64,000 nt of DNA from an uncultured Saccharicrinis sp. (GCA_963675435.1 OY776216.1:4518082-4582081); one strand, 5' to 3'. Positions 28,708-64,000 are shown, counted from the stretch's first letter. A program made the numbers and translations. The notes: a model not told the origin generated them from the letters alone.

Positions 28708-28712
28708 CACAG

Positions 28713-28742: not shown

Positions 28743-28789
28743 AGCCTTCAAAGGCAAACTAAAAAAGTACAAATTAAAATCATATATAA

Positions 28790-28862
28790 GCGGAAGTAGC
28801 TCAGCTGATAGAGCATTAGCCTTCCAAGCTAAGGGTCGCGGGTTTGAATCCCGTCTTCCGCT
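28790..28862 (+). tRNA. tRNA-Gly (TCC), copy 2 (T-arm variant)
   Basis: Same as the 28635 copy, except GGGTTTGAATCCCG replaces GGGTTTGATCCCCG. Confidence 0.9.
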
Positions 28863-28944
28863 CACAGAAGCCATCTGGTTTAAAATAGTTGGTTTCAAGT
28901 TTTCATAAAGTTGAAAACTAATTAAGTATTGAAAAAATAATTTT

Positions 28945-29027
28945 GGGGAGATACCAAAGTGGCCAACTGGGGCGGACTGTAACTCCGCTGACTTTCGTCT
29001 TCGTAGGTTCGAATCCTGCTCTCCCCA
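28945..29027 (+). tRNA. tRNA-Tyr (GTA), copy 2
   Basis: Identical to the copy at 28439-28521. Confidence 0.9.
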
Positions 29028-29054
29028 CTTTAATTTGTTTAAGCAAACAAAATT

Positions 29055-29128
29055 GCCAATATAGCTCAGTTGGCTAGAGCAGCTGATTTGTAATCAGCAG
29101 GTCGTGGGTTCGAGTCCCTCTATTGGCT
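29055..29128 (+). tRNA. tRNA-Thr (TGT), copy 3
   Basis: Identical to the other Thr copies. Confidence 0.9.
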
Positions 29129-29140
29129 CTTTTTTATTTT

Positions 29141-29213
29141 GCGGAAGTAGCTCAGCTGATAGAGCATTAGCCTTCCAAGCTAAGGGTCGCGGGTTTGATC
29201 CCCGTCTTCCGCT
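29141..29213 (+). tRNA. tRNA-Gly (TCC), copy 3
   Basis: Identical to the copy at 28635-28707. Confidence 0.9.
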
Positions 29214-29326
29214 CACAGAAGCCATCTAATTTTCAGTTGGACTTTTTTATATAATTGAGCAATAAAATTATACTTCATTTTTTTAAAATGAAAAGTGAAA
29301 ATATTAAAAAAAAAAACACTTTTTTA

Positions 29327-42250: not shown

Positions 42251-43323
42251 TGTTAATCTTTGGTTCTAAAGTAGCTTGAAAATGGAAGAGAAAAAATTAC
42301 TGTAATTTTACTGTTACTTTTTTCGCTCGTAACCAACTGATTAATAAGGATAAAGAAATTTGAGTAAAATCAGTTTTGAGTCGAAAAGAGCTAAAAAAGG
42401 GCCAATATTCCGGAAAATGGCAAAAAACGATAAAAATATTCCGCAAAATCACGTTTTTGGCCACAAATATTCCAAGTTTTGGTGTTTTTCGGTGTTTTTA
42501 TGACTTTTCTTTGCTAGGTCTTTGCATTTCTATGCTACGGCTTTGCTAATCCTATGCATAGGCATTGCTAGTTGTATGCATAGTCAATGCTATTTCGTTG
42601 TATTGTGCTTGTATTGTGGTTGTGTTGTGTATGCATATTCTTTGATTTTTCTATGCATAGGCATTGCTTCTAAGGAAGCAAAGAAAGATCATAAAATATG
42701 CTTGAACAAAACATAGTCAGTACGACGTCATATCCTAGACATACCATAGGAGCGTAAAGCAAATTACAAGAAAATACAGATTGTTGATGAGCTTTGAATA
42801 TTTGATATGCATTATGGATTAAATGGATAACTGCATCATTTTTGTTTTTTTGCTGCGATAAGTGTCTTTTTGTATTCCTGATAATGAAGCGCATAGAATC
42901 AATTTTTTTCTGTGCCACGCTAAAATGAGTATTAATCATTGCCTGAGTTCTTTTTTTCCTTTATGGGAGCAGGCTAAAAAGTGGCATTGACAAAGTGCTA
43001 CTAAACAAAAGCACATAAGCTTTTTATGAAAAAAATTAATGAATTGGGTTGTTGTTCATATAGTTTTGTTGCTGAATTACAACTACTTTTTCATAATCAA
43101 CAGAAGGTGTATAACCATAATCGTAACAAAAATAATAAAGATTACCACCCTTACTTTTCCAGGTATGTGTTAAACCCGCAATATGCATTAGACCATCTAT
43201 TACACATTGAAATTACTTCAAAACAAGACACTTCGTTACTTCACTTCAACTCACCAGAACGATGCTATGCCTCGTTTCAGTAAAGCCTTGTTTTATGGTA
43301 CTTTCAATGTTCATTACGAAATT

Positions 43324-43587: not shown

Positions 43588-43870
43588 AGTAGTATTATTA
43601 AACGTTAATAGACGTATTTAGCCGTTTATAAAACGGTTAGAACAAGAAATTGTAGGTAGTTTGCAAATAAAAATCATGAATGACAGACCTGTTATTTATT
43701 TAAACAGAATTCAAAAGGAAAGGCAGAAGAAACCATAATTGGAGATTGTTCTTATTTTAATGGAGTTTTACAACCTATTTGTAAATATTAACTAGGAAGT
43801 AGACCACCTATTAATTGAAAAGTATACCACTTATTAACAACGAAATTATTTATGGTTTCGTTACAAACGA

Positions 43871-45406
43871 ATGATAAGTATGTATACAAAACAAGAAATA
43901 ATAATAAAAAGCTATCGAGAAGGGAAAAGTCAACGTTCTATATCTCGCACCTTACAGATAAGCAGAAAAACCGTAAAGAAGTACATAACAGAGTATGAAA
44001 AAAAGCTTTCAGAATCAGAGGATAAAGAAACAGTAAGTGCCAATTATCTATCGACAGTACCAAAATATAAAAGCCGCTCTCTACACAGGAGAAAACTAAC
44101 CCAAGAAGTACAAGACGAAATAGATAAACTACTTGAAGTCAACCGGGAGAAAAAGCTTCAAGGTTTACGAAAGCAGGTACTTAAAAAGGCAGATATATTT
44201 CAGCAATTGCAATTACAGGGTTTTGAGATTGGCTATACAACTGTTTGCAACTATATCCGCTCAAAAGAAAAATCATCTTCTCCCAAAGAAGCTTTTATTC
44301 GACAAGTATATAGTCCGGGCAGTATTTGTGAATTTGATTGGGGCGAAATAAAACTTCGTATCAACGGCAAACAAGAGCGCTTCCAATTAGCAGTTTTCAC
44401 CAGTGCTTACAGCAACTATCGTCATGCCGTGCTATATTATCGTCAAGATACACTTGCGTTTATGGAAGCCCACGTATCTTTTTTCAATAAAACAAACGGC
44501 GTTTATGAGCAAATGGTTTATGACAACATGCGGGTTGCCGTGGCAAAATTTATTGGTCCTCACGAAAAAGAACCAACACGGGCTTTGCTTCAATTACGAG
44601 GTCATTACCAGTTTACTCATCGTTTTTGTAATGCTTACCGAGGCAACGAAAAAGGGCATGTGGAAAGAAGTGTTGAATACATCCGACGGAAAGCTTTTGG
44701 TGTAAAGGATGATTTCAACAGGCTTTCAGAAGCCGCAGAATATTTAAACACCATTCTGGAACGATTAAATAATACCAAACAAAAACAAAGTGGCAAAACA
44801 GCTTTAGAACTGTTTGAAGATGAGAAAGTGGTATTAGGGAAATTACCGGCTGTACCGCTTGTCTGTTCAGACCAAATACAATTGCGCGCCGACAAATATG
44901 CAACAATCAGTCATAAAACCAATAGGTATTCGGTACCGGACCATCTGGTAGGTCAATTTCTAGATGTTCATTTATTGAGTCACGAAATACATGTTTATCA
45001 TGAAAATAAAAAGATAGCCATACACACCAGAAATTACGGCAAGCACCAATGGATAATCTCTATAGAGCATTATTTGAACACTTTCAAGCAAAAGCCGGGA
45101 GCTTTGCCGGGTAGTTTGGCATTAGCAAGCAACGTATATTTAAAACAGCTCTTTTTAGACCATTTTCAAGAAGAACCACGAAACTTTATTGACCTGTTAG
45201 ATTATTGTCGTAAGTACCGCATAAGCGGCGAAAAACTGGAGAAATCGGTATTTCGATTACTGAGTACCGGTTCCGGTGGTATTACTATAGAAAAACTAAA
45301 AGCTGTATTGGGCAATAATGAATCATTTATTACACCCGAACAAAACTGTTCCATTGCTCAATTAGCAAAAAATCAATTGTCGGAAATAAGTGCATTAATG
45401 AATTAA
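43871..45406 (+). CDS. istA: IS21-family transposase IstA
   Basis: 511 aa with an N-terminal HTH (GKSQRSISRTLQISRKTVKKY) and a DDE core. Confidence 0.88.
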   Translation: MISMYTKQEIIIKSYREGKSQRSISRTLQISRKTVKKYITEYEKKLSESEDKETVSANYLSTVPKYKSRSLHRRKLTQEVQDEIDKLLEVNREKKLQGLRKQVLKKADIFQQLQLQGFEIGYTTVCNYIRSKEKSSSPKEAFIRQVYSPGSICEFDWGEIKLRINGKQERFQLAVFTSAYSNYRHAVLYYRQDTLAFMEAHVSFFNKTNGVYEQMVYDNMRVAVAKFIGPHEKEPTRALLQLRGHYQFTHRFCNAYRGNEKGHVERSVEYIRRKAFGVKDDFNRLSEAAEYLNTILERLNNTKQKQSGKTALELFEDEKVVLGKLPAVPLVCSDQIQLRADKYATISHKTNRYSVPDHLVGQFLDVHLLSHEIHVYHENKKIAIHTRNYGKHQWIISIEHYLNTFKQKPGALPGSLALASNVYLKQLFLDHFQEEPRNFIDLLDYCRKYRISGEKLEKSVFRLLSTGSGGITIEKLKAVLGNNESFITPEQNCSIAQLAKNQLSEISALMN

Positions 45407-45414
45407 AAAATAAG

Positions 45415-46170
45415 ATGATGAATACCATAAATGAAGATATAATCAAATACAGTAAAGAGTTACGGCTACCTGTTTTCAGAAGAGATTTTAAAGAGTTAGC
45501 CACAGAAGCAGCAAGCGGACAACTGGATTATGAAGAGTACTTGTTAAAGCTGATGGAGCGAGAGTATGAATTGCGTATAGAAAATCGAAAAAAGACGCAA
45601 ATACGTCTAGCTGGCTTTCCATCCAAGATGTACCTGAATCAACTGGAACGAGAACAGTTGCCCGATGATGCTCGCGCAAAACTCCCGGTATTAGAACGAC
45701 TTGATTTTATAAACTCTGGTCAAAATATCATACTGGCCGGTAATCCTGGCACCGGGAAAACTCACATCGCTATTGGTTTGGGCTTAAAAGCATGCCTTCA
45801 GGGATACCGTGTCCTCTTCACCTCTGTTCATCGGATGTTGACCCAATTAAGAGAATCTCAATCAGAAAGGACTTTGCGTCAATTAGAGCTCCGTTTTGAA
45901 AAGTATGATTTAGTAATCTGTGATGAATTTGGCTATGTATCATTTGATAAAACCGGAGCCGAATTACTATTCAATCATTTATCACTAAGAGCAGGTAGAA
46001 AGTCTACCATAATAACAACAAACTTGGGCTTTGACCGCTGGGAAGAAATCTTTGGAGATGCCGTTTTAACAGCTGCACTAGTCGATAGATTAACTCACAA
46101 AGCCCATTTGGTAAACATGAACGGCGAATCATACCGATTAAAAGAAACAAAAAAAATCTTAGCTAAGTAA
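45415..46170 (+). CDS. istB: IS21-family ATP-binding helper IstB
   Basis: 251 aa with Walker A GNPGTGKTH and Walker B LVICDEFGY. Confidence 0.9.
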   Translation: MMNTINEDIIKYSKELRLPVFRRDFKELATEAASGQLDYEEYLLKLMEREYELRIENRKKTQIRLAGFPSKMYLNQLEREQLPDDARAKLPVLERLDFINSGQNIILAGNPGTGKTHIAIGLGLKACLQGYRVLFTSVHRMLTQLRESQSERTLRQLELRFEKYDLVICDEFGYVSFDKTGAELLFNHLSLRAGRKSTIITTNLGFDRWEEIFGDAVLTAALVDRLTHKAHLVNMNGESYRLKETKKILAK

Positions 46171-46407
46171 AAATGAAACTTATAAAAAATCGTTCCCCGG
46201 TTCCTCTCCTGATTGGGGTACCCCAATCAGGAGAGGAATACCTTTGTCTTTTAAATCAAATGGTATACTTTTGAACTGAAATACTGGTATACTTTTCAAT
46301 TGAAAAAAACAACCTATTGATAAATCGGGTTATTATTTTGGTTCAATAGCTGAGGCTTATATAGAACTTGCTAAAGAAATGAAATATTCATTTTATTTAG
46401 GACAGAT

Positions 46408-46725
46408 GTGATATTACCTCAATATTATAAGGAGTATAAACCAAAGAACTATCTGTTTGAGGGACAGATTGGAGGTCCTTATTCAGCAGGAAGTGCCGGA
46501 AAAGTATTAAAAAGGGCTATAGCTAAGAGCGGCGTACAGCAACGAGGAGGTTTACATTCATTACGTCATAGCTTTGCCACACATTTATTGGAATCAGGCA
46601 CGGATTTGCGCTATATACAAGAACTATTAGGACATAACTCCTCAAAAACCACTGAAATATATACTCACGTGAGCAATAAATATTTACAACAGATTAAAAG
46701 TCCACTAGACGACTTAAATGTTTAA
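46408..46725 (+). pseudogene. 5'-truncated tyrosine recombinase (only the last ~105 codons; Xer-like, paralogous to 56023-56850)
   Basis: Contains [16 protein letters not shown] and the TEIYTHV catalytic Tyr region, and ends IKSPLDDL. An in-frame stop lies 12 codons upstream, and no N-terminal or core-binding domain is present. Confidence 0.8.
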
Positions 46726-46840
46726 AAAATAAATTATATTAGCTAGCAAAAATACATAAGACATAATAAAAATAACCGAAATACTATGTCGATTATTGAA
46801 ATAATTGACATAGTACTTCGGTTAGAAAGTAGTTAGCAAC
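46726..46840 (+). other. Candidate attI-like junction region: 46-bp hairpin (46776-46821), then GTTAGAAAG and GTTAGCAAC boxes
   Basis: CCGAAATACTATGTC-loop-GACATAGTACTTCGG. GTTAGCAAC (46832-46840) is the exact reverse complement of GTTGCTAAC at 52843-52851. Confidence 0.45.
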
Positions 46841-48448: not shown

Positions 48449-49357
48449 ATGATAGAAAATAGTAGCTTAACCAAGTTGATGCGTTGCAAAATAATAATTG
48501 AGGAAGTTGAAAAAGGCACTTATCCTACCGGAGAATATTTGCTCGATAGAATTGCTCGTTGGCTTGAAGGTTTTAAAGAGCTAATTCCTGATATAAAAAC
48601 AGAAATTTCAGAAAGGACACTAAGCAGAGATCGAAAAAATATTAAGGAGATTTTCAATATTGATATTAGCTACGATACAAAGCGAAAAGGCTATTATATT
48701 GGTGAGACCTATAATAAAAGCGATCGGATATTAAGAGCATTGGATGCAATACACGTTTTCTTCATTCAAAAAAACATACCAAATGCTAATAAACACATCC
48801 GGTTTGCGCCTCGTCAAGCTTCAGGTTCGGAACATTTTTTTCATATTCTGAAAGCCATTGAGGATAAAAAGAAGGTTCAGTTTTTTTACGAGCAATACGA
48901 AAAGCAAGAGGAAACACAACGAAGTGTATCTCCATTAGGCTTAAAAGAGTTTAAAGGCTTTTGGTATATGATTGCAGAAGACGAGAAAGGCATAAAAACA
49001 TTTGGTTTAGATCGAATCAAAGGCTTGAATATCACTTTAGAAAATGCGGTTTCCCGAAAGGGTTTTAATATTGACGAGTATTACAAGCATTGTTATGGAA
49101 TTGTTCGTTTACCAAATGACGAACCTCAGGAAATAATTATAAAAACCACTGCGATAAAAGCTAAATACTACAAGGCAAATAAACTGCATACATCTCAAAA
49201 TATAATAAAGACGCAAAACGATGACCAATACCCATATACAATTACGCTACACATGTATCTTACATACGATCTTCAACAAGAATTACGTTCGCATGGAGAG
49301 AAAGAGTTAAAAGTTATACAACCGGAGAATGCTCTGGAGAATGAAAGATATTTTTAA
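48449..49357 (+). CDS. HTH-WYL-domain transcriptional regulator (BrxR/CapW/PafBC-like architecture)
   Basis: 302 aa. N-terminal wHTH-like region (ISERTLSRDRKNIKEIF.IDISYD.KRKGYY). Central WYL-type beta-barrel (V.FFYEQY....QRSVSPLGLKEFKGFWYMIAED). C-terminal extension. Confidence 0.7.
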   Translation: MIENSSLTKLMRCKIIIEEVEKGTYPTGEYLLDRIARWLEGFKELIPDIKTEISERTLSRDRKNIKEIFNIDISYDTKRKGYYIGETYNKSDRILRALDAIHVFFIQKNIPNANKHIRFAPRQASGSEHFFHILKAIEDKKKVQFFYEQYEKQEETQRSVSPLGLKEFKGFWYMIAEDEKGIKTFGLDRIKGLNITLENAVSRKGFNIDEYYKHCYGIVRLPNDEPQEIIIKTTAIKAKYYKANKLHTSQNIIKTQNDDQYPYTITLHMYLTYDLQQELRSHGEKELKVIQPENALENERYF

Positions 49358-49389
49358 TGATTAGAAACTTATAAACTAATCTGAGTAAT

Positions 49390-50445
49390 ATGAAAATAGA
49401 AGAATTTAAAACATGGATGAAAGAATTTTGCGATTTTAATGATACTACAATAAATAATAGAATTTCAAATTGTCGAAAAGTAGAAAGTTGTTATGGCGAT
49501 TTGGAAGACCTTTATTGCAAAGATGGATGTACCAAGATTATAACTGCTCTGACATACTCGACCAAAGATGAAAAAGAAAACCTACCACCGAAGCATATTA
49601 TACCTATTGACGGAAATATAAGGAATGGATCAGCAACATTAAAAAGTGCTGTTAAACTGTATGTAGAGTTTGAAGAAGATTTTTCTGCTAAAGAGGAAAA
49701 AGAAAATGAGTTGATTGATGAGATGTTCGTTGAAGAGGTAGAAGATAAAATTGAGGATAAGAGCGATATGAAGAATGGTTTTAATAGTTTATTTGACCTA
49801 ATAAATACTTCAGAAGATGAATTTATTCGATTTTTTATTAAGAATACCCTTTTTATATCACCTGAGTACGTTGAAAATCAAGTGCAAGAACTTCATCAAC
49901 AGATTGAAAATGGAGAAAAGATACCGGTTCGATTTTCTTTAAAGATGAAAGAACATTTTAAGGCGACTGGCAAATATGTAAGCACCATTAAGAATCGAAA
50001 AGATGCGGTTAATATTAGTAGAGAATTTGATATTTATAGTAAAAGAAGATCAGGTGTAAAGGTGAAATTTGACTCTACCGGAAATAAATCTGTTGTCGAC
50101 GCTATTGAAAAATATACAAAATGTAGGGTAAGCACTTCTCAAAGTCACATAATAAACTACTCAATATCTCATGTTTGGGCACAAACTTTTGATCCGTTTT
50201 TCTTTTCATCTTTATGGAACATTGTATTAGTTCCAAGTTATTTAAATCCTATAATGGATAAACCTAAACATCAGCAAAAACTAAATGGTGAAATTCAAGG
50301 GCTAATAAAAGCCATTTGTAATGAATTGTATAATCCAAATGAGCTTTTGAATGATTCGTTGATTGAGATGGAGTCTGCAGTTATTTGTAAAAAAGCTAAA
50401 GAAATCATAGCAGAGGGATTAATTAATTATATAGATCTTAACTAA
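49390..50445 (+). CDS. Hypothetical protein with a C-terminal degenerate HNH (HNH_2/PF13391-like) nuclease motif
   Basis: 351 aa. SISHVWAQTFDP...LWNIVLVPSYLNPIMD resembles the HI.Pw...NgllL....fD pattern. The middle is acidic. The domain call is from memory of the family pattern only. Confidence 0.45.
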   Translation: MKIEEFKTWMKEFCDFNDTTINNRISNCRKVESCYGDLEDLYCKDGCTKIITALTYSTKDEKENLPPKHIIPIDGNIRNGSATLKSAVKLYVEFEEDFSAKEEKENELIDEMFVEEVEDKIEDKSDMKNGFNSLFDLINTSEDEFIRFFIKNTLFISPEYVENQVQELHQQIENGEKIPVRFSLKMKEHFKATGKYVSTIKNRKDAVNISREFDIYSKRRSGVKVKFDSTGNKSVVDAIEKYTKCRVSTSQSHIINYSISHVWAQTFDPFFFSSLWNIVLVPSYLNPIMDKPKHQQKLNGEIQGLIKAICNELYNPNELLNDSLIEMESAVICKKAKEIIAEGLINYIDLN

Positions 50446-50456
50446 GAAGAAACATA

Positions 50457-50870
50457 ATGGCAAAAATGTATAAGGTGAGGGTTAAAGGAACTGCTCAACT
50501 AAATGGCCCTGTAAAAGTAGACAAGACAGTTGAAATGGAAGAGCAGATGGCAATACGATTTAACGGAGCTGATCGTTATTCAGTAATTGAGTCATTTGTG
50601 CAGACTCATTACCCTGGAGTACAAATACCAAGCATTAGAGGTTTTGGTGCAGAAGTAACCCCTATAAAGGAAGCAAAAACTCCAAAGTCAAGAAAAGCAA
50701 AATCTAAATCTAAATCATCAAGAAGTACTCCATCAACAAAAGGGTTAAGCACTAAAAAGTTAATAGGTGGTGCTATTGTGGCAGCAGTTGTTGCTCCAAT
50801 AGTAAAAGAGGTCATTGGTGATGTAATTGATGAAGTAAAGGATGTACTAAAAAAAGCTAAGAAAAAATGA
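50457..50870 (+). CDS. Hypothetical small protein (globular N-domain, Lys/Ser-rich linker, hydrophobic/amphipathic C-terminus)
   Basis: 137 aa, 11 bp after the previous stop. Its stop overlaps the next start (ATGA). Confidence 0.45.
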   Translation: MAKMYKVRVKGTAQLNGPVKVDKTVEMEEQMAIRFNGADRYSVIESFVQTHYPGVQIPSIRGFGAEVTPIKEAKTPKSRKAKSKSKSSRSTPSTKGLSTKKLIGGAIVAAVVAPIVKEVIGDVIDEVKDVLKKAKKK

Positions 50871-51727
50871 TAAAACTAAAGCAAAGCTTATCCAAGATAG
50901 ATAAGGATAAGATTAAAGAATCTGCGATTGTTTTTTTATCTAATCTCAAAGAGAAGGTAAGTATTCAAGATTTAGAAAAAGTAAATAATTTTTTACCAAA
51001 TATGAATAAAGGGGTATTACAGGAGGTTTGGACAAATGTTGGTGATTTGTGGGCTTATGTAAATAATAAGGAAATTTCAATTGTTGAGAAAACTCTTCCT
51101 CTTGCAGCTTTAGTATATGTCATTAGTCCAATAGATACGATTCCTGATGGAGTCCCAATTGCTGGTTTGATCGATGATGCTTCAATTATATCTTTTATTT
51201 GTGCTTCAATTGCTTCAAAATTAGCTATTGTAAATTCAAATGACTCTTCAATAGAAAACGTAAATAACCTTATGAGTATTGAGGGGAATATCGGAATTTC
51301 AAATCCTAAGGAGAAATTAAATGTATTAACTTCTATTTTAACTCATGCTGCATATGCTGATGGAGAAATGAGTTCTATAGAAGAAGAAAAGCTTAGAGAA
51401 ATAGTAGATTTTTTTGTTTTTTCTGAAGAAGGTTGGTTTTCTACACATGAGGATTTTAATAAGGAAGAAATCTGTGTAATAATTGAGAAAACAATAAAAC
51501 AACCTCTTTCATTGAAGCAAATAATTGAGTTTGTAAATAATGTTAATGAAGATGAAGAGCAATGGTATTTTTATGCTTATGCAGTAGTAGCTTGTGATGA
51601 TGAAATTAATGCATCAGAGAGAGATTTCTTAGATCTTTTTGCCGAAAAACTTAATATTTCCAAGTTTGATGTTAGCAATATTGAAAGGAGCTTTGAAGAA
51701 GTTTGGACAATTACTGTAGAAGATTAA
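50867..51727 (+). CDS. DUF1232 (YkvA-like) membrane domain fused to a TerB-like domain
   Basis: 286 aa. SPIDTIPDGVPIAGLIDD is the DUF1232 signature. HAAYADGEMSSIEEEKL and VACDDEINASERDFL look like TerB/DjlA-N repeats. Confidence 0.6.
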   Translation: MIKLKQSLSKIDKDKIKESAIVFLSNLKEKVSIQDLEKVNNFLPNMNKGVLQEVWTNVGDLWAYVNNKEISIVEKTLPLAALVYVISPIDTIPDGVPIAGLIDDASIISFICASIASKLAIVNSNDSSIENVNNLMSIEGNIGISNPKEKLNVLTSILTHAAYADGEMSSIEEEKLREIVDFFVFSEEGWFSTHEDFNKEEICVIIEKTIKQPLSLKQIIEFVNNVNEDEEQWYFYAYAVVACDDEINASERDFLDLFAEKLNISKFDVSNIERSFEEVWTITVED

Positions 51728-53667: not shown

Positions 53668-53847
53668 TAAGGCATGTGGGGAACCGTGATTCGCGTGCGG
53701 TGGTGATTTCTATTTGCCCGCCTAATGCTTTAAAAGTTACTTTGTGTTGTTAAATAAGTCCCTTGTAAAAGCATTAGGCTCAGTGAGGTTTGGGAAAGGG
53801 CGACAATTTCAATCCCCACACAGCCTCATATGCGAGCCGTTGTGGCC
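53650..53847 (+). other. attC-like site B (about 195 bp)
   Basis: GCCCATAAC-AATGCATAATAAGGCATGTGGGGA... pairs with ...TCCCCACACAGCCTCATATGCGAGCC-GTTGTGGCC. The internal arms CCGCCTAATGCTTT and AAAGCATTAGGC also pair. Confidence 0.7.
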
Positions 53848-53949
53848 AATTATACCTATTCTAGAGAAATTGAATTTTTCACTTAGTAAATACTAATGTC
53901 TATTATTGGTCGAGACTATATTATTAATAACATAACTTGAATAATTAGT

Positions 53950-54507
53950 ATGATTAAAATAAATGAATATAAATTATCCTCTTCAATATTATTTAGCTGT
54001 ATTATATTGATAGTGTCGGCAGTGTCATGTTTAAATAAGAATAGAGTAAGGAAATATACAGAGGAAGAGGAAAAGTTTAAGGCAGTTGTAATCAAATCTT
54101 GTGATAATTCTATAGCTAATGAAGGTTTTAAGATAGACAGTAAGTTGCTGTATGGACAATGGGAAGAATCTATAGTGTGGGTGCAGAATCAAGATTTAAC
54201 AAGAACAGGAATTAGATATATTTATCTTCGCTCTGAATATGAATTTATTAATAATGCACATTTTGGTTCGAAATTTTTTTTCAAAGATTCTTTGCTTGAT
54301 CTATATGTTGGGAAATTTAAACTTATAGAAGAGGGGACTAAAATAGAAATTATGAGCAATCTTAGAAATGATTTTGATTTTAAGAATGGAGATACTATTA
54401 GACAAGCAATTCATCGGGTTCATTTATTAAATGATTCTATATTAAGAATTGAGGAAGATCCTCGATCATGCAGGAGTGGGACAATAGTAGAATATAGAAG
54501 AAAATAA
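53950..54507 (+). CDS. Cassette ORF: hypothetical secreted/lipoprotein-like protein
   Basis: 185 aa with an N-terminal hydrophobic segment ending VSAVSC. Confidence 0.45.
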   Translation: MIKINEYKLSSSILFSCIILIVSAVSCLNKNRVRKYTEEEEKFKAVVIKSCDNSIANEGFKIDSKLLYGQWEESIVWVQNQDLTRTGIRYIYLRSEYEFINNAHFGSKFFFKDSLLDLYVGKFKLIEEGTKIEIMSNLRNDFDFKNGDTIRQAIHRVHLLNDSILRIEEDPRSCRSGTIVEYRRK

Positions 54508-54817
54508 CAGGCCACAACACTTAGAATATAATTAATCACGAACTGCCCAAAAAAGTCCCATCAAACCATCAGAGTGATTCATTATATTTGTTGTTGAACG
54601 GAACCGGGATAAGCGAGCCCATTGTATGGGGATTGATATGAAATGGGTCTTTCATTTATGCTTGGTAAGCATAAAACTCCAAAGTTAAAACAGAAAGTTT
54701 GGGTAAAAAATCATTAAAATAAAGAGTTAAAACCACCTCAATGTATAAATCGACAGTTGATTTAGCTCTTTTTGTTGGTTATAAGACATACCTTTCCCAT
54801 TACACCAAAGGCGGCGT

Positions 54818-56026
54818 TTATGATATAGAGGCAGATTGAGTTGATTTTGTATTTTTTATTGAGTTGGGACTACCTCTGATAGCCGGCTTAAAAGAGGCTA
54901 TACGTTGCATGGTGCCTTGTTTACATTTTGGGCATTGATCGTGAGGATGGCCAAAAAGCAGCACAAATAATTCCTTCCAAGGGATCCCTTTTTTAGATTC
55001 CGGGGAGCAAGCATTAAATATTTTCCGGATGATCTCTAAGCACAGTTTCTTTTTAGAGGAACCTAGAAACCCATAATGCCTTATTTTCATAAAAGCGGGA
55101 GGAAGTATATGCATGGAAAGTCTTCGCAGAAACTCAAAATAAGAAAGATGCATCACATCCACTTTAGCGTTTTTGTAGTTGAGCCACGAAAAATACACAT
55201 TATTATCATCCAGGCTTTTAATACGCTGGTTACTAATTGCAACTCTATGAGTATACCTAGCCAAGTATTCCAGCACTTGCTTAGAATTGTGCATGGGTAA
55301 TTTAGCATATACCACCCATTTATTTTTATAAAAAGGATGCAGGTATTTACGCTCTGGTTCAAAAGTAGTTTTTAAAGTAATGGTTCCCTTATTGTGTAAG
55401 TCCATCAGGTAATCGCAAAACTTACCTCTAAAAACAGCACTTAAGGCTTTAACAGGATATAAAAACTTACCTTTACTTTTTGTATTTTTCCATTTGTTTT
55501 GAGGGGTTAAACCACCGCCCGGCACAATGCAATGTACATGTGGATGAAAAACCAGGTTTTGTCCCCAGGTATGCAAAATGGCAATCATACCGGTTTGAGC
55601 GCCCAAATGTTTATAATCCAGAGCAAACTGTTTAATGGTATCCCATGCTGCCCTAAAAAGTACATTGTACATATCTCTGGGATGATCTATAAACAAAGGA
55701 TTTAGCTGTTCGGGAACGGTAAATACCACATGAAAATATTTGATGGGTAAAAGATCTGATTCTCGATCTATCAGCCACCTTTCCTTTTTCAGACCATTAC
55801 ATTTAGGGCAGTGCCTGTCTCTGCAACTATTGTATGAATATTGCTCATGACCACATTCTGAGTTGTTACATTTATCCTGATGATAGCCTAGAGCAGCCGT
55901 TCTGCAATTTCCCAGGTTTGTAAACACCTTTTTCTTATGCGCATTTAAATGTCCGGCCTCAATCACACTGTGTTTATGATCCCTGATAATAGCACCAATA
56001 TCAAATATGGGTTTACTATAGCTCAT
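54818..56026 (-). CDS. IS91-family (rolling-circle, HUH Y2) transposase with an N-terminal zinc-binding domain
   Basis: 402 aa with the cysteine cluster CRDRHCPKC, the HUH motif HPHVHCIVPGGG and YLARYTHRVAIS (Y2 region). Confidence 0.88.
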   Translation of the reverse strand: MSYSKPIFDIGAIIRDHKHSVIEAGHLNAHKKKVFTNLGNCRTAALGYHQDKCNNSECGHEQYSYNSCRDRHCPKCNGLKKERWLIDRESDLLPIKYFHVVFTVPEQLNPLFIDHPRDMYNVLFRAAWDTIKQFALDYKHLGAQTGMIAILHTWGQNLVFHPHVHCIVPGGGLTPQNKWKNTKSKGKFLYPVKALSAVFRGKFCDYLMDLHNKGTITLKTTFEPERKYLHPFYKNKWVVYAKLPMHNSKQVLEYLARYTHRVAISNQRIKSLDDNNVYFSWLNYKNAKVDVMHLSYFEFLRRLSMHILPPAFMKIRHYGFLGSSKKKLCLEIIRKIFNACSPESKKGIPWKELFVLLFGHPHDQCPKCKQGTMQRIASFKPAIRGSPNSIKNTKSTQSASIS

Positions 56027-56850
56027 CGTTGCAGCCTGTCTAAAGGCGAAATCATAGGGTTTGATTTTAGGTTGTTGCTAATTTGCAGGTATACCATGGT
56101 GGTTCTGATATCATCGTGCCCCATCATTTTTTGTATAGACACAATGTCAACGCCAATTGCCAACAAGTGTGATGCAAAAGCATGTCTCAAAGAGTGAGGT
56201 GTAAAGTGCTTTTCAATGCCAGACCTATCCAGAGCATATTGAAAACCCCACTTTACAGCCTCGTCGCTATAAGGTTTACCTTTATACCTGCCATTAAATA
56301 AATATACCTGCGGTTTAAATTGATGTAAATAGTGCTTTATTTCAGGAATGAGTGATTGGGCCAAAACAGCGTATCTGTCTTTATTGCCTTTACTGTCTTT
56401 AATATAAATACGATGGTTTTTAAAATCGAGATGCTCAATTTTAAGGTTGATAATCTCACTTTTGCGCAAACCAGCTGAATAAATAACTTTTAGTAATAGT
56501 CTGTGCTTTGGACTTATGGCAGCATTAAATAATTGCAGCAGTTCTTTCCCGGTAGGGATCAAGGGTAGATACTTTGTAGCTTTAGGGTAAGGTACATCAG
56601 AAATAATATCAATGCGCTTATACACGCTTTTATACATAAAACGCAGCCCCTGTAAGTAATTTCTGATGGTAGACCGACTCAGCTTTTGATCGTTTTTAAG
56701 ATACAGCAGAAACTCATATATTTCCATTTCCGAAAGCTCATCAGGTAGCTTACCGGAAAATAAGCAGAGTAGCTTAGTAGAACGCATATAATTAGCAATT
56801 GAGCTATTAGAAAAATGCGCTACTTCCATTCTTACATGCAGATTGTGCAA
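56023..56850 (-). CDS. Tyrosine recombinase (Xer-like), translationally coupled to the IS91-like transposase
   Basis: 275 aa from a TTG start. Motifs: AGLRKSE (Arg I), KGNKDR, HSLRHAFASHLL, MMGH, MVYLQ (Tyr). The frame continues open a further 14 codons upstream of the TTG. A nearby ATG is one frame off across an A8 tract. Confidence 0.85.
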   Translation of the reverse strand: MHNLHVRMEVAHFSNSSIANYMRSTKLLCLFSGKLPDELSEMEIYEFLLYLKNDQKLSRSTIRNYLQGLRFMYKSVYKRIDIISDVPYPKATKYLPLIPTGKELLQLFNAAISPKHRLLLKVIYSAGLRKSEIINLKIEHLDFKNHRIYIKDSKGNKDRYAVLAQSLIPEIKHYLHQFKPQVYLFNGRYKGKPYSDEAVKWGFQYALDRSGIEKHFTPHSLRHAFASHLLAIGVDIVSIQKMMGHDDIRTTMVYLQISNNLKSNPMISPLDRLQR

Positions 56851-57114
56851 TAATGCCTCAACACTCTTTGGTGTTGTTAAACTTTTTTTTCATCTTTAAT
56901 CAGTTTATTAAAATTGAAATACAAAGATGCGGTATTTTACCGTCAAAACCTCGTTGTCTACCGACGTAGGAGGTTTAGTTCAACATTTTGTATAAGTAAT
57001 GGCAGGTAATGTAGTAAATATCAAGGTTTGTAGCCCGCTCAAACTGCGCAGAAGTTTGCTAGTAAACTACCACGCAATCTGCCACTACTCATACAATTTA
57101 CCGTTAGCAGCTAT

Positions 57115-57654: not shown

Positions 57655-57848
57655 GCTGCTAACATCGTATAAATTCAATGCTGCCAATTAGTTACGTGGT
57701 ATTATCTACAAGTAATAAGCTCCGCTAATTTTATTTCCTTGCGGAAAGAAAATTTGCTAAATTGGTGCAAACAAATAAAATTAGCTATTTGCAAAATTGG
57801 AACGGTATTCTTTCAAATACGCACTGAAATTTATACACACGTAAGGGG
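57655..57848 (+). other. attC-like site D (about 190 bp)
   Basis: GCTGCTAAC-ATCGTATAAATTCAATG... pairs with ...CACTGAAATTTATACACAC-GTAAGGGG. The R' is degenerate, GTA instead of GTT. Confidence 0.6.
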
Positions 57849-57850
57849 TA

Positions 57851-58027
57851 ATTCCCCCTATAAACCTATAGGATTGATTTAAAATAAAGGTAATCAATCT
57901 TTTTAAGGCTAATTGATTTCTGAAGCTAACGTAAAACAGGCCAGCTGGAATTAGCTGAAAAATGACAATTGAGAGAAAATTATAAACAACTGAATATTAG
58001 TGACTATTCTTTACGTTAGTCAGAATT
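57851..58027 (+). repeat. ~180-bp repeat family 'P2', copy 1
   Basis: Shares CCCCTATAA(A/G)CCTA(T/G)AGGATTGATTT...AATCAATC...TTGATTTCTGAAGC(T/G)AACGTAAAA...TTTACGTTAGTCAGAAT with the copies at 58749 and 61503. Confidence 0.8.
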
Positions 58028-58614: not shown

Positions 58615-58747
58615 CCCCTAACACGCAATAAATTTCAAGTGGCAGTGTTTATAATTAGTATGTTACGCTATTTCTATGGAGTAAGTATCAGCAGAAAGTA
58701 ATGCAGTTTCTAACGCCACCCGTAAATTTATCGCAAACGTTATGGGC
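58615..58747 (+). other. attC-like site E (about 130 bp)
   Basis: CCCCTAAC-ACGCAATAAATTTCAAGTGGCAG... pairs with ...CCCGTAAATTTATCGCAAAC-GTTATGGGC. Confidence 0.7.
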
Positions 58748-58748
58748 A

Positions 58749-58925
58749 ATTCCCCCTATAAGCCTAGAGGATTGATTTTGAAATAAGGTAATCAATCTCT
58801 TAAAGGTTTATTGATTTCTGAAGCGAACGTAAAAATGGTTAGCAGAAATGAGCAGAAAAATGATAAATTTGACTAAAATATAAACTACTGAATATCAGGG
58901 GGTAATTTTTACGTTAGTCAGAATT
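58749..58925 (+). repeat. P2 repeat, copy 2
   Basis: See copy 1. It begins 2 bp after the attC R' box. Confidence 0.8.
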
Positions 58926-59783: not shown

Positions 59784-59925
59784 TTTATTTTGTAAACATA
59801 GAGGCGGTTGCGATTCTTTTAATATTCTATTGAATACACATTCGGCTGGTAACCTTTATGAAAATAACTAATGTGGGAAAATCATCGTATTGATTGATGT
59901 GATGAAACAAAAAGCCCATAACAAA

Positions 59926-61216
59926 GAACTAAGGTAAAAACCAAATAAAAAGGGCATAATTTTTCCTTTTGAATTACCTAATTGTTTTGGGAGGCAAGTT
60001 CAAAAAGAGAAATTATAGAGAAACCAAAACAGACTTAAAATTTGGATCATATTTTAAGCCTGTTTTTGCAATCCCCATTGACTGGGCTAACAGTTTGTTA
60101 GAGACCGCAATTAAGGCTAATTTTTTTGATTTGCCTTTAGCTACCAGTCTGTCAAAAAGCGCTTTACATTGTGGGTTTCTGGTACATGCCGCAAAACTGC
60201 ACATAAACAAGAGCTTACGAATCAAAGGATTCCCTTTTTTAGATATTCTGGACTTTCCTCTTACACTGGATCCTGAAGTGAAAATGACCGGAGATAATCC
60301 AAGGAAAGCAGAAAGCTGTCGGTTGTTTTCAAATGTTTTGAAGCCATTTGTACAAACTATCAGCATTATGGCTGTTTTTTTACCTATCCCAGGAATTGAT
60401 AAAAGATTAGATAACAACTGTTGTTCATGCTTTTTAATAGTATCTTCTAATTCTTGTTCAAGTAGTTTAATTTCAGCTTCAATTTGGCGGATTTGACGCT
60501 TTAATGAAGTAATAACTTTACCTTTAATACCTTTATCCACAAAGCTATGTAATTTATTTTTTAGAGCTGTACTTTGTTTAAAATACAAGCTAATGGTAGT
60601 GTGTAAATCTTTACAATGTTCTATGTACTCAGGTAATGGATGCCACAGGTTCAGCTTTTGTTCCTGAGCATACTTAACAATCATTTTAGCATCACTTTTA
60701 TCTGTTTTATTGTGTTGGAGCTTCATTTTGAATGTAGCGTTTGATTACAAGCGGATTTATAACAGAAACAGCAATTTCATTTTCAAATAAAAATAGAGCT
60801 AGTTGGTTATAATAACATCCTGTATATTCCATGACACACCAGCTCTTGGCATCCAGTAACAGTAGAAACTTATTAAATCCTTCATCATTATTTGTAAACT
60901 GTTTATGTCCCAATTCAGAACTCCAGACATCAAATACTTTTTTGGAGATGTCGATACCAATAAAATGATTATTTTTATTCATAATTAAAAGATTTAAAAG
61001 AACGCAGCTACTTTAATATAGCAACCTAAAAACAGGCTTAAGAGGCCCAAAGAACTAATCGTATTTCAGTAGCGAAAGGGTGGGGATTTTCATTGTTGAC
61101 AAGCTTTATGCTTTATGCTTTATGTATATATTAACCTTAATCCACTCTTTCGTTCTTTTTTATTTGTATTGTAAGTTAATAAAAAGTAATATTTAGTATT
61201 GAAAAGTAAACTTAGG
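59926..61216 (-). mobile_element. IS110-family insertion sequence inserted in an attC-like site (boundaries inferred by alignment to the intact attC at 53650)
   Basis: The intact site reads GCCCATAACAATGCATAATAAGGCATGTGGGG. Here GCCCATAACAA (59914-59924) is separated from ATGCATATAAGTCATGTGGGG (61217-) by about 1.29 kb that encodes an IS110 transposase. Confidence 0.7.
60013..60982 (-). pseudogene. IS110-family (DEDD) transposase, split by a frameshift in an A4 run near 60707-60726
   Basis: The N-terminal ORF reads ...IGIDISKK...VMEYTGCYY...IKRYIQ. The second ORF starts MKLQHNKTDKSDAK and contains IPGIGKKTA. Removing one A restores ...RYIQMKLQHNKTDKSDA. Confidence 0.8.
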
Positions 61217-61502
61217 ATGCATATAAGTCATGTGGGGTGCAGGTGATTCGCTTAGGGTTGTGATTTCAATATGTCCGCCCATTGCTTTTAAATCGACACT
61301 TTCTTATTAATTTAGCCTATTGAAAAGCAATGAGCTAAGTGGGTTTTTGAGAGGTCGGACTATTTCAATCCCCACACGCCTCATATGCGTATCGTTGGGT
61401 TTCATTCCCCACATCCCACAGAAAAGCAGAATTAAATTCTTAAGCTAACGTGCAAATTTAAAGGGGATTGTGCAATTTAAAATTTGACGTTAGTCACAAT
61501 TC

Positions 61503-61675
61503 ATCCTATAAACCTAGAAGATTGATTTTAAGACAAGTTAATCAATCCCTTAAAGGTTTATTGATTTCTGAAGCGAACGTAAAAATACGAGCATTAAGAT
61601 GGATGAAATTTAAAGGAATTGACTAAAGTATAAATAACGGAATATCAACGACTAAAGTTTACGTTAGTCAGAATT
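61503..61675 (+). repeat. P2 repeat, copy 3
   Basis: See copy 1. It ends 34 bp before the ORF at 61709. Confidence 0.8.
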
Positions 61676-62503: not shown

Positions 62504-62681
62504 AGCATAAGTGAGCCGACTCGTTTTGGTTGGTTCGCAGCTTCGGCAATCATCGCCCAATCGTTGATTTGGCTTTAAATATGAAAAGATAAAAACAAAT
62601 ACAACGCTTTGGCTTGGTGAGGTTCGAAAGTATGTTGGGTTAAAATCTCACTTACGCTTCATAGCCGAGCCGTTAGGTGGT
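62482..62681 (+). other. attC-like site G (about 200 bp)
   Basis: GAAACCCAAC-AATGGCTCATAAAGCATAAGTGAGCC... pairs with ...CTCACTTACGCTTCATAGCCGAGCC-GTTAGGTGGT. Confidence 0.7.
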
Positions 62682-62778: not shown

Positions 62779-63486
62779 ATGAAAATTAAACTCGTTATTC
62801 ATCTTTTATTGCTGATAAGTTTATCTTCCTGTAAGTTTTCCAATGAGCAATATGAATCAAAAGTGTTAGATGATATTTTTCTCGATTTGTTGATTGAAAT
62901 GTCTGTACAGGGTGTCCTTTTACCTCCACCACCACCTTTACCTCTTGATTTTTTAGACACAAATTATGATACAACAGGTTATGCGCATAAAGTGGCAAAA
63001 TACGAAGAGGATATTTTATTAGAAAAGGAAAGATTAGTAAAAGAATTTCAAGATTATGGAAATAGACCTAAAGAAATGATTTTAGCTATTGCTGATTCAA
63101 TGTCAACTATGGCAAGTCTAAATAATTCTATGTTAGAAAAGGTATTTCCAACCGAAGTATTGTCCGAATTAGTAGAATCAATAGAACAAGGAATAAAGAA
63201 GAAGAGAAAGTTGCAGATAAAAGAAATAACATCAACAGGTCCTTATCAGCTTAAATATTTTAAAGACCTACCAAGAAATATTAACTATGATGATAAAAAG
63301 CTCGATTTAAAATATGTAGGAAGTATTGGTATTTCTAGAATTTACTTTGACAAAGTAAGAGAACATGGGATTTTAGGATGCAGCTATACTATGGGTGCAT
63401 TATCTGGTCATGGTGCATTAATCTGTATTAAAAAAGTAAAAAATAGGTGGATAATAATAAAAAGTATAGTAACATGGGTGTCATAA
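62779..63486 (+). CDS. Cassette ORF: hypothetical lipoprotein
   Basis: 235 aa with the signal LLLISLSSC. Confidence 0.5.
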   Translation: MKIKLVIHLLLLISLSSCKFSNEQYESKVLDDIFLDLLIEMSVQGVLLPPPPPLPLDFLDTNYDTTGYAHKVAKYEEDILLEKERLVKEFQDYGNRPKEMILAIADSMSTMASLNNSMLEKVFPTEVLSELVESIEQGIKKKRKLQIKEITSTGPYQLKYFKDLPRNINYDDKKLDLKYVGSIGISRIYFDKVREHGILGCSYTMGALSGHGALICIKKVKNRWIIIKSIVTWVS

Positions 63487-63505
63487 GAGAATAACACCAC
63501 CTAAC

Positions 63506-64000
63506 ACTTAGAATATAATTAATCACGAACTGCCCAAAAAAGTCCCATCAAACCATCAGGGTGATTCATTATATTTGTTGTTGAACGGAACCGGGATAAG
63601 CGAGCCCATTGTATGGGGATTGATATGAAATGGGTCTTTCATTTATGCTTGGTAAGCATAAAACTCCAAAGTTAAAACAGAAAGTTTGGGTATAAAAATC
63701 ATTAAAATAAAGAGTTAAAACCACCTCAATGTATAAATCGACAGTTGATTTAGCTCTTTTTGTTGGTTATAAGACATACCTTTCCCATTACACCAAAGGC
63801 GGCGTTTATGATATAGAGGCAGATTGAGTTGATTTTGTATTTTTTATTGAGTTGGGACTACCTCTGATAGCCGGCTTAAAAGAAGCTATACGTTGCATGG
63901 TGCCTTGTTTACATTTTGGGCATTGATCGTGAGGATGGCCAAAAAGCAGCACAAATAATTCCTGCCAAGGAATCCCTTTTTTAGATTCCGTGGAGCAAGC
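63506..64000 (-). mobile_element. Second copy of the IS91-like/integrase element (partial, runs off the right edge)
   Basis: Aligns base-for-base with 54519-55012, apart from four substitutions and a 1-bp indel I could see. It starts right after ACCACCTAAC. Confidence 0.85.
63806..64000 (-). CDS. IS91-family transposase, C-terminal part only (window edge)
   Basis: Homologous to 54818-55012. The stop codon is at 63806-63808 (minus strand). Confidence 0.8.
   Translation of the reverse strand, partial: ACSTESKKGIPWQELFVLLFGHPHDQCPKCKQGTMQRIASFKPAIRGSPNSIKNTKSTQSASIS

Follow-up and report, generated by a model that had tools for sequence, protein, structure and literature searches.

The current analysis concerns a 64,000-nucleotide stretch of DNA from an uncultured Saccharicrinis sp. 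(GCA_963675435.1 OY776216.1:4518082-4582081; hereafter the window, with positions counted from its first letter), in which a gene cassette array is interrupted by two copies of an IS91-family insertion sequence (IS) that carries its own tyrosine recombinase gene. The window is chromosomal, as indicated by an rRNA operon, tRNA genes and a Bacteroidales-type signal recognition particle (SRP) RNA. From approximately 52.8 kb onward, its plus strand encodes short open reading frames (ORFs), most of which lack a Pfam match, with long imperfect hairpins between them. Both copies of the element are located on the minus strand within attC sites of this array, and the features of the element and the sites it interrupts are as follows.

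54510-54518, plus strand: R'' box GGCCACAAC of the interrupted attC of cassette 53840-57103, reverse complement of GTTGTGGCC at 53839-53847
54519-56985, minus strand: element copy 1, 2467 bp, ends accurate to +/-3 nucleotides
54524-54599, minus strand: oriIS-type end, a subterminal imperfect palindrome with arms 54524-54539 and 54574-54589
54818-56026, minus strand: tnpA, 402 amino acids, IS91-family HUH/Y2 transposase (NF033538, PF04986, PF14319)
56023-56893, minus strand: int, integron-like-subgroup tyrosine recombinase (PF00589, Phage_integrase; PF13495, SAM_4)
56883-56893, minus strand: int start, ATG at 56891-56893 and A8 run at 56883-56890, with the main int ORF in the +1 frame relative to the ATG
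56925-56985, minus strand: terIS-type end, reading TGTTGAAC, with GTTGAAC at 56978-56984
56986-57111, plus strand: rest of the interrupted attC (L''-loop-L'-R')
56990-57005, plus strand: L'' GTATAAGTAATGGCAG of this remainder
57079-57094, plus strand: L' CTGCCACTACTCATAC of this remainder, with spacer AATTTACC before R'
57103-57111, plus strand: R' GTTAGCAGC, the end of the interrupted attC
63497-63505, plus strand: R'' box CCACCTAAC of the attC into which copy 2 is inserted; its exact reverse complement, GTTAGGTGG, opens the cassette at 62672-62680
63506-64000, minus strand: element copy 2, ori-side 495 nucleotides, 98.8% identical to 54519-55012 and cut by the window end

The extent of the first copy was established by comparison with nine related loci (L001-L009), which were obtained from a one-genome-per-species scan and belong to Saccharicrinis, Plebeiibacterium and other Marinilabiliaceae. 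Element ends were taken as the points where homology to these loci starts or stops while the flanks differ. On the transposase side, homology to the relatives ceases at ...GATTAATTATATTCTAAGT, equivalent to window position 54519, and on the integrase side it ends at 56985, where the minus strand reads TGTTGAACTAAACCTCC. Because homology to all nine loci stops at both ends and the flanks beyond either end are unrelated, the element is assigned to 54519-56985. Its sequence (ACTTAGAATATAATT) begins directly 3' of GGCCACAAC, and the second copy begins directly 3' of ACCACCTAAC at 63496-63505. Both of these strings and both starts (54518/54519 and 63505/63506) had been given correctly in an initial annotation of the window. 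The same annotation extended the element over 54510-57111, however, which places its right boundary 126 nucleotides too far, as 56986-57111 is the remainder of the attC. The insertion point is certain only to 1-3 nucleotides, because the bases CAACA in copy 1 and AACA in copy 2 occur at both junctions. Two additional ORFs (7680-8912 and 9555-10382), whose sizes match those of tnpA and int, were considered as a third copy and rejected, since by eye their products resemble a tryptophan-synthase-beta-type enzyme and a membrane protein.

Copy 1 is a complete IS91-family insertion sequence, in which an HUH/Y2 transposase gene is preceded by an overlapping gene for a tyrosine recombinase of the integron-like subgroup; the int stop codon and the tnpA start codon share the sequence ATGA. 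The transposase scores 432.6 bits against NCBIfam NF033538 (cutoff 125), matches Pfam Y2_Tnp and Zn_Tnp_IS91, and contains an N-terminal zinc-binding domain, the HUH motif HPHVH (residue 161, encoded by 55532-55546) and the YxxxY motif YLARY (residue 254, encoded by 55253-55267). In addition to these transposase motifs, the element exhibits further attributes of the family, namely the lack of target duplication, a conserved tetranucleotide at oriIS, and subterminal palindromes together with a target-like ter sequence. The oriIS and terIS hairpins anticipated in the initial annotation could be defined at both ends, ter by its folding z scores and ori by comparison. The ter end consists of (T)GTTGAAC followed by an imperfect palindrome at approximately 56946-56976 (fold z = -2.6 and -3.4). 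At the ori end, the last minus-strand bases ...CTAAGT adjoin the flank GTTG, while a GTTCAAC heptamer (minus strand, 54593-54599) is an inverted copy of the heptamer at the ter end.

Both interrupted sites have the structure of attC. The 5' 9-mer of the cassettes (GTTNNNNNN) recurs as an exact reverse complement at the start of the cassette's own attC in six cassettes, listed here by cassette start and own R'' box.

52971 / 53650, plus strand: exact 9-nucleotide reverse complement
53839 / 54510, plus strand: exact 9-nucleotide reverse complement
57103 / 57655, plus strand: exact 9-nucleotide reverse complement
58739 / 59914, plus strand: exact 9-nucleotide reverse complement
61394 / 62483, plus strand: exact 9-nucleotide reverse complement
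62672 / 63497, plus strand: exact 9-nucleotide reverse complement

As a scan for GTTNNNNNN and its reverse complement also yields 34-64 chance pairs per shuffled window in such AT-rich DNA, only the specific 9-mers of the flanks were counted as evidence. Since each matches its own cassette start in this manner, GGCCACAAC and ACCACCTAAC are genuine R'' boxes. Joining 54518 to 56985 yields R''-A-TTTT-GTATAAGTAATGGCAG...CTGCCACTACTCATAC-AATTTACC-GTTAGCAGC, which forms a long imperfect hairpin like those of the intact neighboring attC sites. The restored site thus has R'' (RYYYAAC) and R' (GTTRRRY) boxes surrounding an imperfect L''/L' hairpin, with R'' complementary to the 5' end of its own cassette. 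These attC assignments are based upon the boxes, the 9-nucleotide matches and the folds, which are alike in intact and reconstructed sites, rather than upon a covariance model. In the initial annotation, the attC was thought to resume just before 57103; the L' arm had been recognized correctly, but the site resumes approximately 120 nucleotides earlier. At many occupied sites there is also a second (A/T)AAC approximately 10 nucleotides upstream of the AAC, for example AATAAC-A-N6-AAC (GTTR-N6-GTTAT on the other strand). It can be seen at 54498-54518 and 63485-63505 of the window, in the ori flanks of L001, L008, L010 and L016, and in several metagenome loci, and it may reflect either the stop-codon region of cassette genes or an extra target determinant.

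The element is a member of a large family in Bacteroidota whose ends are invariant. The transposases of the nine related loci are 73-80% identical to that of the window, and in three of these loci (L001-L003) the arrays are shared with a second lineage, type B, the recombinase of which is 38% identical. Type B has the same ter end and an ori end in which ...CTAAGT adjoins GTTR. Further int+IS91 gene pairs were found by tblastn on many plasmids, and those of Myroides, Chryseobacterium, Sphingobacterium and Arenibacter again exhibit the ter end TGTTGAACTAAACC; at the plasmid-type ori end, GTTCAAC is followed by a bulged hairpin and CTTAGT-T[A], which adjoins TTR. Metagenomes were scanned with the ter-end pattern, which yielded at least 120 contigs. 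This pattern was chosen because an earlier ori pattern, which allowed a gap of 35-65 nucleotides, had missed the window's own lineage, where the gap is 68 nucleotides. In all lineages, including the Flavobacteriia plasmids and these metagenome contigs, the ter end TGTTGAACTAAACC is identical. The ori end has a constant order of GTTCAAC, a bulged hairpin, and a spacer of 5-8 nucleotides (CTAAGT, CTTAGTT, TATTT and others) leading to the junction, with the inverse repeat of GTTCAAC growing to 12 nucleotides in type B. The sequence of the ori hairpin is wholly different between lineages, whereas its shape, with a 1x1 mismatch and a 2-nucleotide bulge on the 5' arm, is retained. Across 14 Flavobacteriia-type sequences, pairing holds in 98.5% of cells, compensatory changes are found in 8 of 14 pairs, and the observed value was not reached by any of 500 shuffles. 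A double-stranded circle-junction core resembling Xer/dif sites (inverted arms with a 6-bp spacer) was considered and rejected as a conserved feature, since the CTTAGT/ACTAAA partial palindrome occurs only in the Flavobacteriia-type lineage and not in types A, B or C. An int+IS91 element from Rhizobium (L011) has different ends, and no target could be defined for it. In three metagenome contigs (L055, L093 and L136), the ter end is present and int and tnpA do not follow within the 3.6-4.8 kb downstream; such contigs may carry a solo end, a deletion derivative or a non-autonomous relative.

Throughout this family, insertion occurs preferentially, and in one orientation, at the R''/L'' junction of attC, without duplication of the target. 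Each of approximately 38 transposase-side (ori) junctions, which represent at least four lineages, reads [G/A]TT[R], save for one with T at the fourth position, and there is no exception to NTT. All ten type-A junctions begin with GTTR, and among the metagenomic matches listed, 21 full elements (13 identified by pattern and 8 by eye) end beside [G/A]TT[R/T]. An exact reverse complement of the 9-mer at the ori flank, marking the cassette start, is located 0.6-1.3 kb away for both window copies, for both element types of L002, for type B of L003, and for L004 and L008. On the ter side, 54% of the 104 distinct flanks among the matches listed contain a hairpin with a score of at least 12, ending 0-3 nucleotides from the junction, while none of 267 control positions in the same contigs reaches this score. 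An AAC lies within 12 nucleotides 5' of the distal arm in 51 of the 56 hairpin-bearing flanks. The layout is 5'-RYYYAAC-G[GT]TT[TC]-arm-loop-arm-T directly followed by the element, mostly 110-114 nucleotides in total, which is attC read on the bottom strand with its long spacer on the L'/R' side. Insertion is always on the short-spacer R''/L'' side of attC, tnpA is always antiparallel to the cassettes, and excision of the element restores attC-like folds. The initial annotation identified the CAAC and TAAC targets as the attC core, and it is now evident that the preference for GTTR (YAAC on the cassette strand) is a property of the family and not a coincidence of two copies. It also suggested testing whether flanks are always attC-like AAC boxes; ori junctions read [G/A]TT[R/T] throughout, and approximately one third of the ter flanks among the matches listed lack an attC-like hairpin. 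The preference for attC is strong, not absolute. A recurrent ter-side flank that is not attC, in which GAGTTGTGCAACGGTTACC(N) adjoins TGTTGAAC, was encountered in three unrelated contigs (L012, at approximately 3808-3827, L067 and L124) and may be either a further preferred target or an end belonging to a different element.

Direct evidence concerning the state of a target before insertion was obtained from the Myroides odoratimimus plasmid p63039 (L010, NZ_CP013691.1 48249-57115), in which the element resides inside the attC of an aadS cassette. Its flanks were joined and the result searched against plasmids. The joined sequence matches, as a single piece at 99.7-100% identity, uninterrupted aadS cassettes from Bacteroides xylanisolvens, B. 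thetaiotaomicron, Riemerella anatipestifer and Empedobacter stercoris, and the three sequences compare as follows.

Empty aadS site: ...CCAATACGATG TTG TACGACG
Occupied aadS site, ter side: ...ACGATG TTG AACTAAACC
Occupied aadS site, ori side: ...CTTAGTTA TTG TACGACG

Nothing has been lost or duplicated beyond the 2-3 nucleotides TT(G) common to the element end and the target, which, together with the attC restored by joining the window flanks, bears out the absence of target duplication proposed in the initial annotation. At the aadS site the target G remains on the ter (integrase) side, and the element itself contributes the base found at the ori junction. This base is A in every member of the sub-lineage containing 'gggctttcat', versus G in the empty site; most other members, that of the window included, have G. 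Because the target G stays on the ter side, the break is at G^TT, equivalent to AA^C on the cassette strand, or at most three bases 3' of this point, and not after the C. In the window lineage both bases are G, and therefore the break point is not resolvable there; no empty site for the window copy was found by exact-protein look-ups of tnpA and the two adjoining cassette proteins. By analogy with the aadS site of the related lineage, the bounds of copy 1 would be 54518-56983. An insertion exactly after the AAC, as initially annotated, is thus correct to within 1-3 nucleotides, but the related lineage places the break inside the triplet, and 'after the AAC' probably means 'within the AAC'.

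Int contains the complete set of catalytic residues of tyrosine recombinases, namely R (AGLRKSE), K, HxxR (HSLRH), H and Y (MVYLQ), and profile searches support the initial assignment of both genes as an IS91-family transposase and a tyrosine recombinase carried by the same element. Among proteins of solved structure, it is most closely related to IntI4, an integron integrase of Vibrio (2a3v; E = 4e-34). When the two are aligned, IntI residues 182-252 are skipped, where Int has 28 residues versus 70, such that Int is approximately 42 amino acids shorter at the extra domain of IntI. Against the integron integrase model TIGR02249, it scores 177.6 bits in two stretches, below the cutoff of 265. 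Without the extra domain and with a score below cutoff, Int does not belong among the integron integrases proper, and its context is likewise unlike that of IntI, which is encoded beside attI and a promoter at the head of an array; int lies within an element that interrupts an attC in mid-array, and tnpA follows it. No canonical integron integrase was seen in the loci, though little weight attaches to this, given how short the loci are. IS91-family members that have an accessory integrase (int+IS91), such as ISWz1, ISMno24 and ISShvi3, are listed in ISfinder. Smyshlyaev, Barabas and Bateman placed the recombinases of IS91 and IS3 elements in an 'integron-like' subgroup that lacks the IntI insertion, and IntI requires its extra domain in order to recognize DNA specifically (10.1101/542381). 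Our placement of Int agrees with this classification. The pairing of an IS91 element with a recombinase, which had initially been considered unusual, is already known, as such pairs are annotated on many plasmids and have been classified (10.1101/542381); the interest lies instead in the behavior of the family as a whole and in its link to integron integrases.

The start of int has a conserved peculiarity. In 21 of 23 lineages, the start codon ATG has an A8 or A9 run within 3-13 nucleotides downstream, and the long int ORF is out of frame with this ATG, while in one locus (L015) the run is A7 and int is in frame. This poly-A start occurs in the window, in L001-L006 and L010-L016, and in metagenome loci. 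Conservation at the protein level extends to residues upstream of the first in-frame Met, and the int reading frame is intact in all lineages. Judged by this conservation, the poly-A run does not reflect a sequencing error but appears to be a conserved site of slippage or phase variation, and it is a clean candidate for programmed transcriptional slippage or a phase-variable switch controlling a mobile element. A related fragment was also encountered elsewhere in the window. At 46408-46725, within the region 46408-46830, is a 105-amino acid C-terminal tyrosine recombinase fragment that is 40% identical to the element Int, has an SPLD.L tail in common with it, and lacks the IntI insertion. It is on the same strand as the cassettes, which begin approximately 6 kb downstream, and its N-terminal part was not found upstream. 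The fragment is followed by a short attC-like hairpin (approximately 46782-46828; AAC-CGAAATACTATGTC...GACATAGTACTTCG-GTTAG).

Based upon these features, we consider it likely that the family moves by rolling-circle transposition of the IS91 type, directed to the GTT at the foot of the attC hairpin, and that the recombinase has an accessory role. Rolling-circle transposition by TnpA is favored because the features of the element match those described for the IS91 family (PMC13181058). TnpA would nick at the ori junction and displace the window plus strand, terminating at the ter sequence, which bears the same GTTG as the target, and the displaced strand would then be joined into the target [G]TTR. 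When single-stranded or extruded, attC would present a GTTR 0-3 nucleotides from the foot of a long hairpin, a geometry that matches the element's own ori end in its hairpin, spacer and cleavage site, with the target break at G^TT. Presumably, attC is preferred because GTTR at the hairpin foot mimics this ori end. The recombinase could contribute to target choice, to the processing of circles or multimers, or to excision. It would be kept intact by selection, with its expression held low by the conserved poly-A frameshift site.

Several observations weigh against this scenario, and a number of them are shared with a different one, in which the recombinase itself performs an integron-like insertion. 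The break at G^TT is one base off that of classical IS91 elements, where the whole tetranucleotide lies outside the element, and it equals the crossover position of integron integrases. The element is also built like a cassette, as it starts with TTGAAC (TTRRRY) and ends with a bulged hairpin plus G/A, while its GTTCAAC, located subterminally, would be complementary to GTTGAAC on the other side of a circle junction. Which enzyme forms the joint cannot be read from junction sequences. Furthermore, the AT-rich ori hairpin of the window copy is not more stable than shuffled sequence (z = 0.1), and its assignment is based upon conservation across lineages and the covariation seen in the Flavobacteriia-type sister lineage. 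The metagenome sample was picked by its ter-end pattern and, among the matches listed, contains only the Flavobacteriia-like sequence variant, its flanks include the fraction without an attC-like hairpin, and the L001 insertion site is atypical. In the integron-like alternative, the element would be a selfish gene cassette. TnpA or replication would supply a single-stranded circle, the ori-ter junction would fold like an attC (GTTCAAC, bulged stem, spacer, G/A^TTGAAC), and the IntI-like recombinase would recombine the circle, at G^TT, with a resident attC whose top strand is folded. This would explain insertion at R'', since the inverted orientation corresponds to that top strand, as well as a G^TT break at which the first base comes from the element (A in the 'gggctttcat' lineage versus G in the empty site). 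The partners share 2-3 nucleotides only, which is typical of integron recombination between folded strands and not of classical double-strand tyrosine recombination. The cassette-like layout, the complementarity of GTTCAAC and GTTGAAC (12 nucleotides in type B), the bulged bases on the 5' arm as in attC, the intact int frame in all lineages, and the position of IntI4 as the best solved relative within the integron-like subgroup (10.1101/542381) all point in the same direction, and Riemerella resistance units with attC-like 3' stem-loops are known to integrate without homology (PMC13148043). On the other hand, the recombinase lacks the inserted domain of IntI and falls below the TIGR02249 cutoff, most copies have int out of frame with the ATG, and some insertions lie outside attC-like hairpins. 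An IS91 TnpA alone suffices to yield the same duplication-free junction flanked by a tetranucleotide (PMC13181058). The GTTCAAC/GTTGAAC pair could simply be an inverted repeat bound by the transposase, and it gives no covariation evidence, because the repeat never varies in most lineages. Overall, we regard insertion by the recombinase as unlikely compared with transposition by TnpA, yet deserving of serious attention.

Certainly, one could also suppose that there is no true homing to attC, such that GTTR suffices as a target and copies pile up in attC sites and arrays because insertions into such non-coding, non-essential DNA are harmless and those elsewhere are purged. It is known that cassette arrays can accommodate insertion sequences, an IS110-like element occupies a neighboring attC of the same array, and the ter flanks without hairpins, including the recurrent non-attC flank, would be expected. 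This explanation is very improbable. GTTR occurs about once per 100 nucleotides and many copies reside in intergenic or cassette DNA, yet a single attC position is hit, 0-3 nucleotides from the hairpin foot, always on the R''/L'' side and never at the equivalent GTT of R'. A single orientation is likewise found in 51 of 56 metagenomic insertions among the matches listed and in every testable Marinilabiliaceae insertion. Selection for a safe haven is excluded as the sole cause, because it cannot yield specificity of position and orientation within a 110-nucleotide non-coding site. Least credible of all is the possibility, raised by the initial annotation against its own reading, that the shared ACTTAGAAT... 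is part of a conserved attC and not the end of an element, with int and tnpA as cassette cargo. Both window flanks do also have AATAACA six bases upstream of the AAC, but the same ends bound the same two genes beside unrelated flanks in different species and phylum-level lineages, intact attC sites of the same array lack ACTTAGAAT, and the empty aadS attC provides an uninterrupted version of an occupied site, which rules this reading out for practical purposes. The initial observation is real and its core interpretation right, with the boundary and exact break point corrected.

The family is also present among antibiotic resistance cassettes. The array of p63039 contains aadS, blaMYO-1, blaOXA and probably catB, with attC sites of approximately 110 nucleotides, and within it the unit comprising the int+IS91 element and aadS is tandemly duplicated. 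This arrangement is compatible with the initially proposed mobilization of adjacent cassettes by read-through, but it is also explained by homologous recombination. The same aadS cassette, with an identical attC, is found behind different neighbors in Bacteroides, Riemerella and Empedobacter plasmids, and in two loci (L137 and L138) it adjoins ere(D) and tet(X). The family thus sits inside the resistance array of a Myroides plasmid, duplicated with aadS beside blaMYO-1, blaOXA and catB, and it adjoins resistance genes on other Bacteroidota plasmids. Because of this location in and near resistance arrays, the family may influence cassette movement between Bacteroidota chromosomes, plasmids, and integrative and conjugative elements (ICEs).

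Several other features of the window merit description. A second, unrelated insertion sequence, an IS110-like element at approximately 59925-61221 (DEDD_Tnp_IS110 and Transposase_20), is located within 59914-61402, inside a neighboring attC. Its gene is split at 60707-60726 into ORFs of 91 and 237 amino acids. It is inserted two bases past the AAC of the R'' box GCCCATAAC (59914-59922), the attC resumes with ...ATGCATATAAGTCATGTGGGG, and its R' box GTTGGGTTT is at 61394. In one array, two unrelated IS families thereby occupy nearly the same attC spot, which is reminiscent of the IS1111-attC group. A non-coding module of approximately 192 nucleotides occurs three times (57836-58027, 58734-58925 and 61484-61675), upstream of three different cassette ORFs. 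The copies are 69-81% identical, the first two start at or near an R' box, and there is no Rfam match; the module may serve as a promoter, a leader or a small RNA carried by cassettes. The plus strand at 48449-51727, upstream of the clear cassettes, encodes a WYL-domain regulator (48449-49357), a 351-amino acid protein of no named kind, a lysine-rich 137-amino acid protein, and a DUF1232/TerB-like protein, which is possibly a defense or stress module rather than cassettes. An IS21-family element at 43813-46315 (istA, 43871-45406; istB, 45415-46170) is found just upstream of the recombinase fragment, with inverted ends at 43813-43849 and 46265-46301 and a probable flanking ACCTATT duplication. 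Further upstream are three tandem copies of a unit of approximately 517 bp without a long ORF (40800-42300; 79-99% identical in parts), and, at 28205-29232, the SRP RNA followed by a triplicated tRNA gene array with a repeat unit of approximately 506 bp.

The implications extend beyond this locus. The end signature, TGTTGAACTAAACC ... CTWAGT-[G/A]TT, can serve to annotate both the elements and interrupted attC sites that attC-finding programs otherwise miss. It also becomes testable how integron integrases came to act on folded single-stranded hairpins. We consider it doubtful, though far from negligible, that the closest relatives of IntI ride cassette-like IS91 elements that insert at the G^TT/AA^C of attC, on the arm and strand opposite to those used by IntI, with the recombinase catalyzing or directing this step. 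If the recombinase does act on folded strands supplied by TnpA, the family would constitute a living link between rolling-circle transposons and integrons and a second, mirror-image system of attC recombination, and it could drive, or be the resident recombinase of, Bacteroidota arrays including those with aadS, blaOXA, blaMYO and catB.

When compared with known systems, the element is closest to IS91, IS801 and IS1294. Members of this family transpose without duplication into GTTC, CTTG or GTCC targets beside oriIS, have subterminal palindromes at both ends, and form single- and double-stranded circles; in IS801 and IS1294, the ter cleavage site and the target are both GTTC, and in IS91 a small upstream ORF, orf121, has a stop codon that overlaps the tnpA start (PMC13181058). 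The present element shares the NF033538 transposase with its HUH and YxxxY motifs, the lack of duplication and of long terminal inverted repeats, the oriIS downstream of tnpA beside a T-rich tetranucleotide (here GTTR), a ter site resembling the target, the palindromes at both ends, and an upstream ORF overlapping the tnpA start. It differs in that this ORF encodes a full tyrosine recombinase instead of orf121, the target is a tetranucleotide at the foot of the attC hairpin used in a fixed orientation, and the first tetranucleotide base appears to travel with the element. Among previously reported elements, ISWz1/ISMno24 'tandem transposase genes' occur in multiple copies in the ICE resistance regions of Weeksellaceae (PMC10973501, PMC11322121), ISwz1-bounded segments form circles (PMC11322121), and ISShvi3 has been noted 'adjacent to an attC site' in an integron of Shewanella (PMC9229058). 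Compared by their literature descriptions, ISWz1, ISMno24 and ISShvi3 are probably of the same subgroup, and the ISwz1-type elements of Weeksellaceae ICEs may, by description, belong to the family itself; the source papers do not report attC as the target, a fixed position or orientation, or the int poly-A. A literature search, which did not cover ISfinder or TnPedia, likewise found no description of IS91-type homing to attC, of its fixed position and orientation, or of the int poly-A site.

Single-strand transposition into a short target tetra- or pentanucleotide read beside a DNA hairpin is also a feature of IS200/IS605 (HUH-Y1) elements and REP-associated tyrosine transposases, some members of which accumulate at repeated palindromic sequences. 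These, however, are Y1 enzymes with no zinc domain and no recombinase, and their targets are not attC. With integron cassettes and IntI, the element has in common a recombinase related to IntI, a G^TT/AA^C break, a TTRRRY start, a bulged hairpin end, and partners that share GTT alone. Unlike them, it lacks the IntI domain, inserts at R'' in inverted orientation and not at R' or attI, and has an HUH transposase together with IS91-type ends. Insertion into attC in a fixed orientation is otherwise known from the IS1111-attC group of the IS110 family and from group IIC-attC introns (PMC9229058, PMC3001079), which employ an RNA-guided DEDD transposase and a retrohoming ribozyme, respectively, with no HUH transposase and no tyrosine recombinase. 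As the transposase described here is of the HUH/Y2 type, not the DEDD type, the element does not belong to the IS1111-attC group. It would instead represent a third class of attC-targeting element besides these two (PMC9229058, PMC3001079), one based upon HUH single-strand chemistry, and would be the only one to carry a recombinase from the integron-integrase clade.

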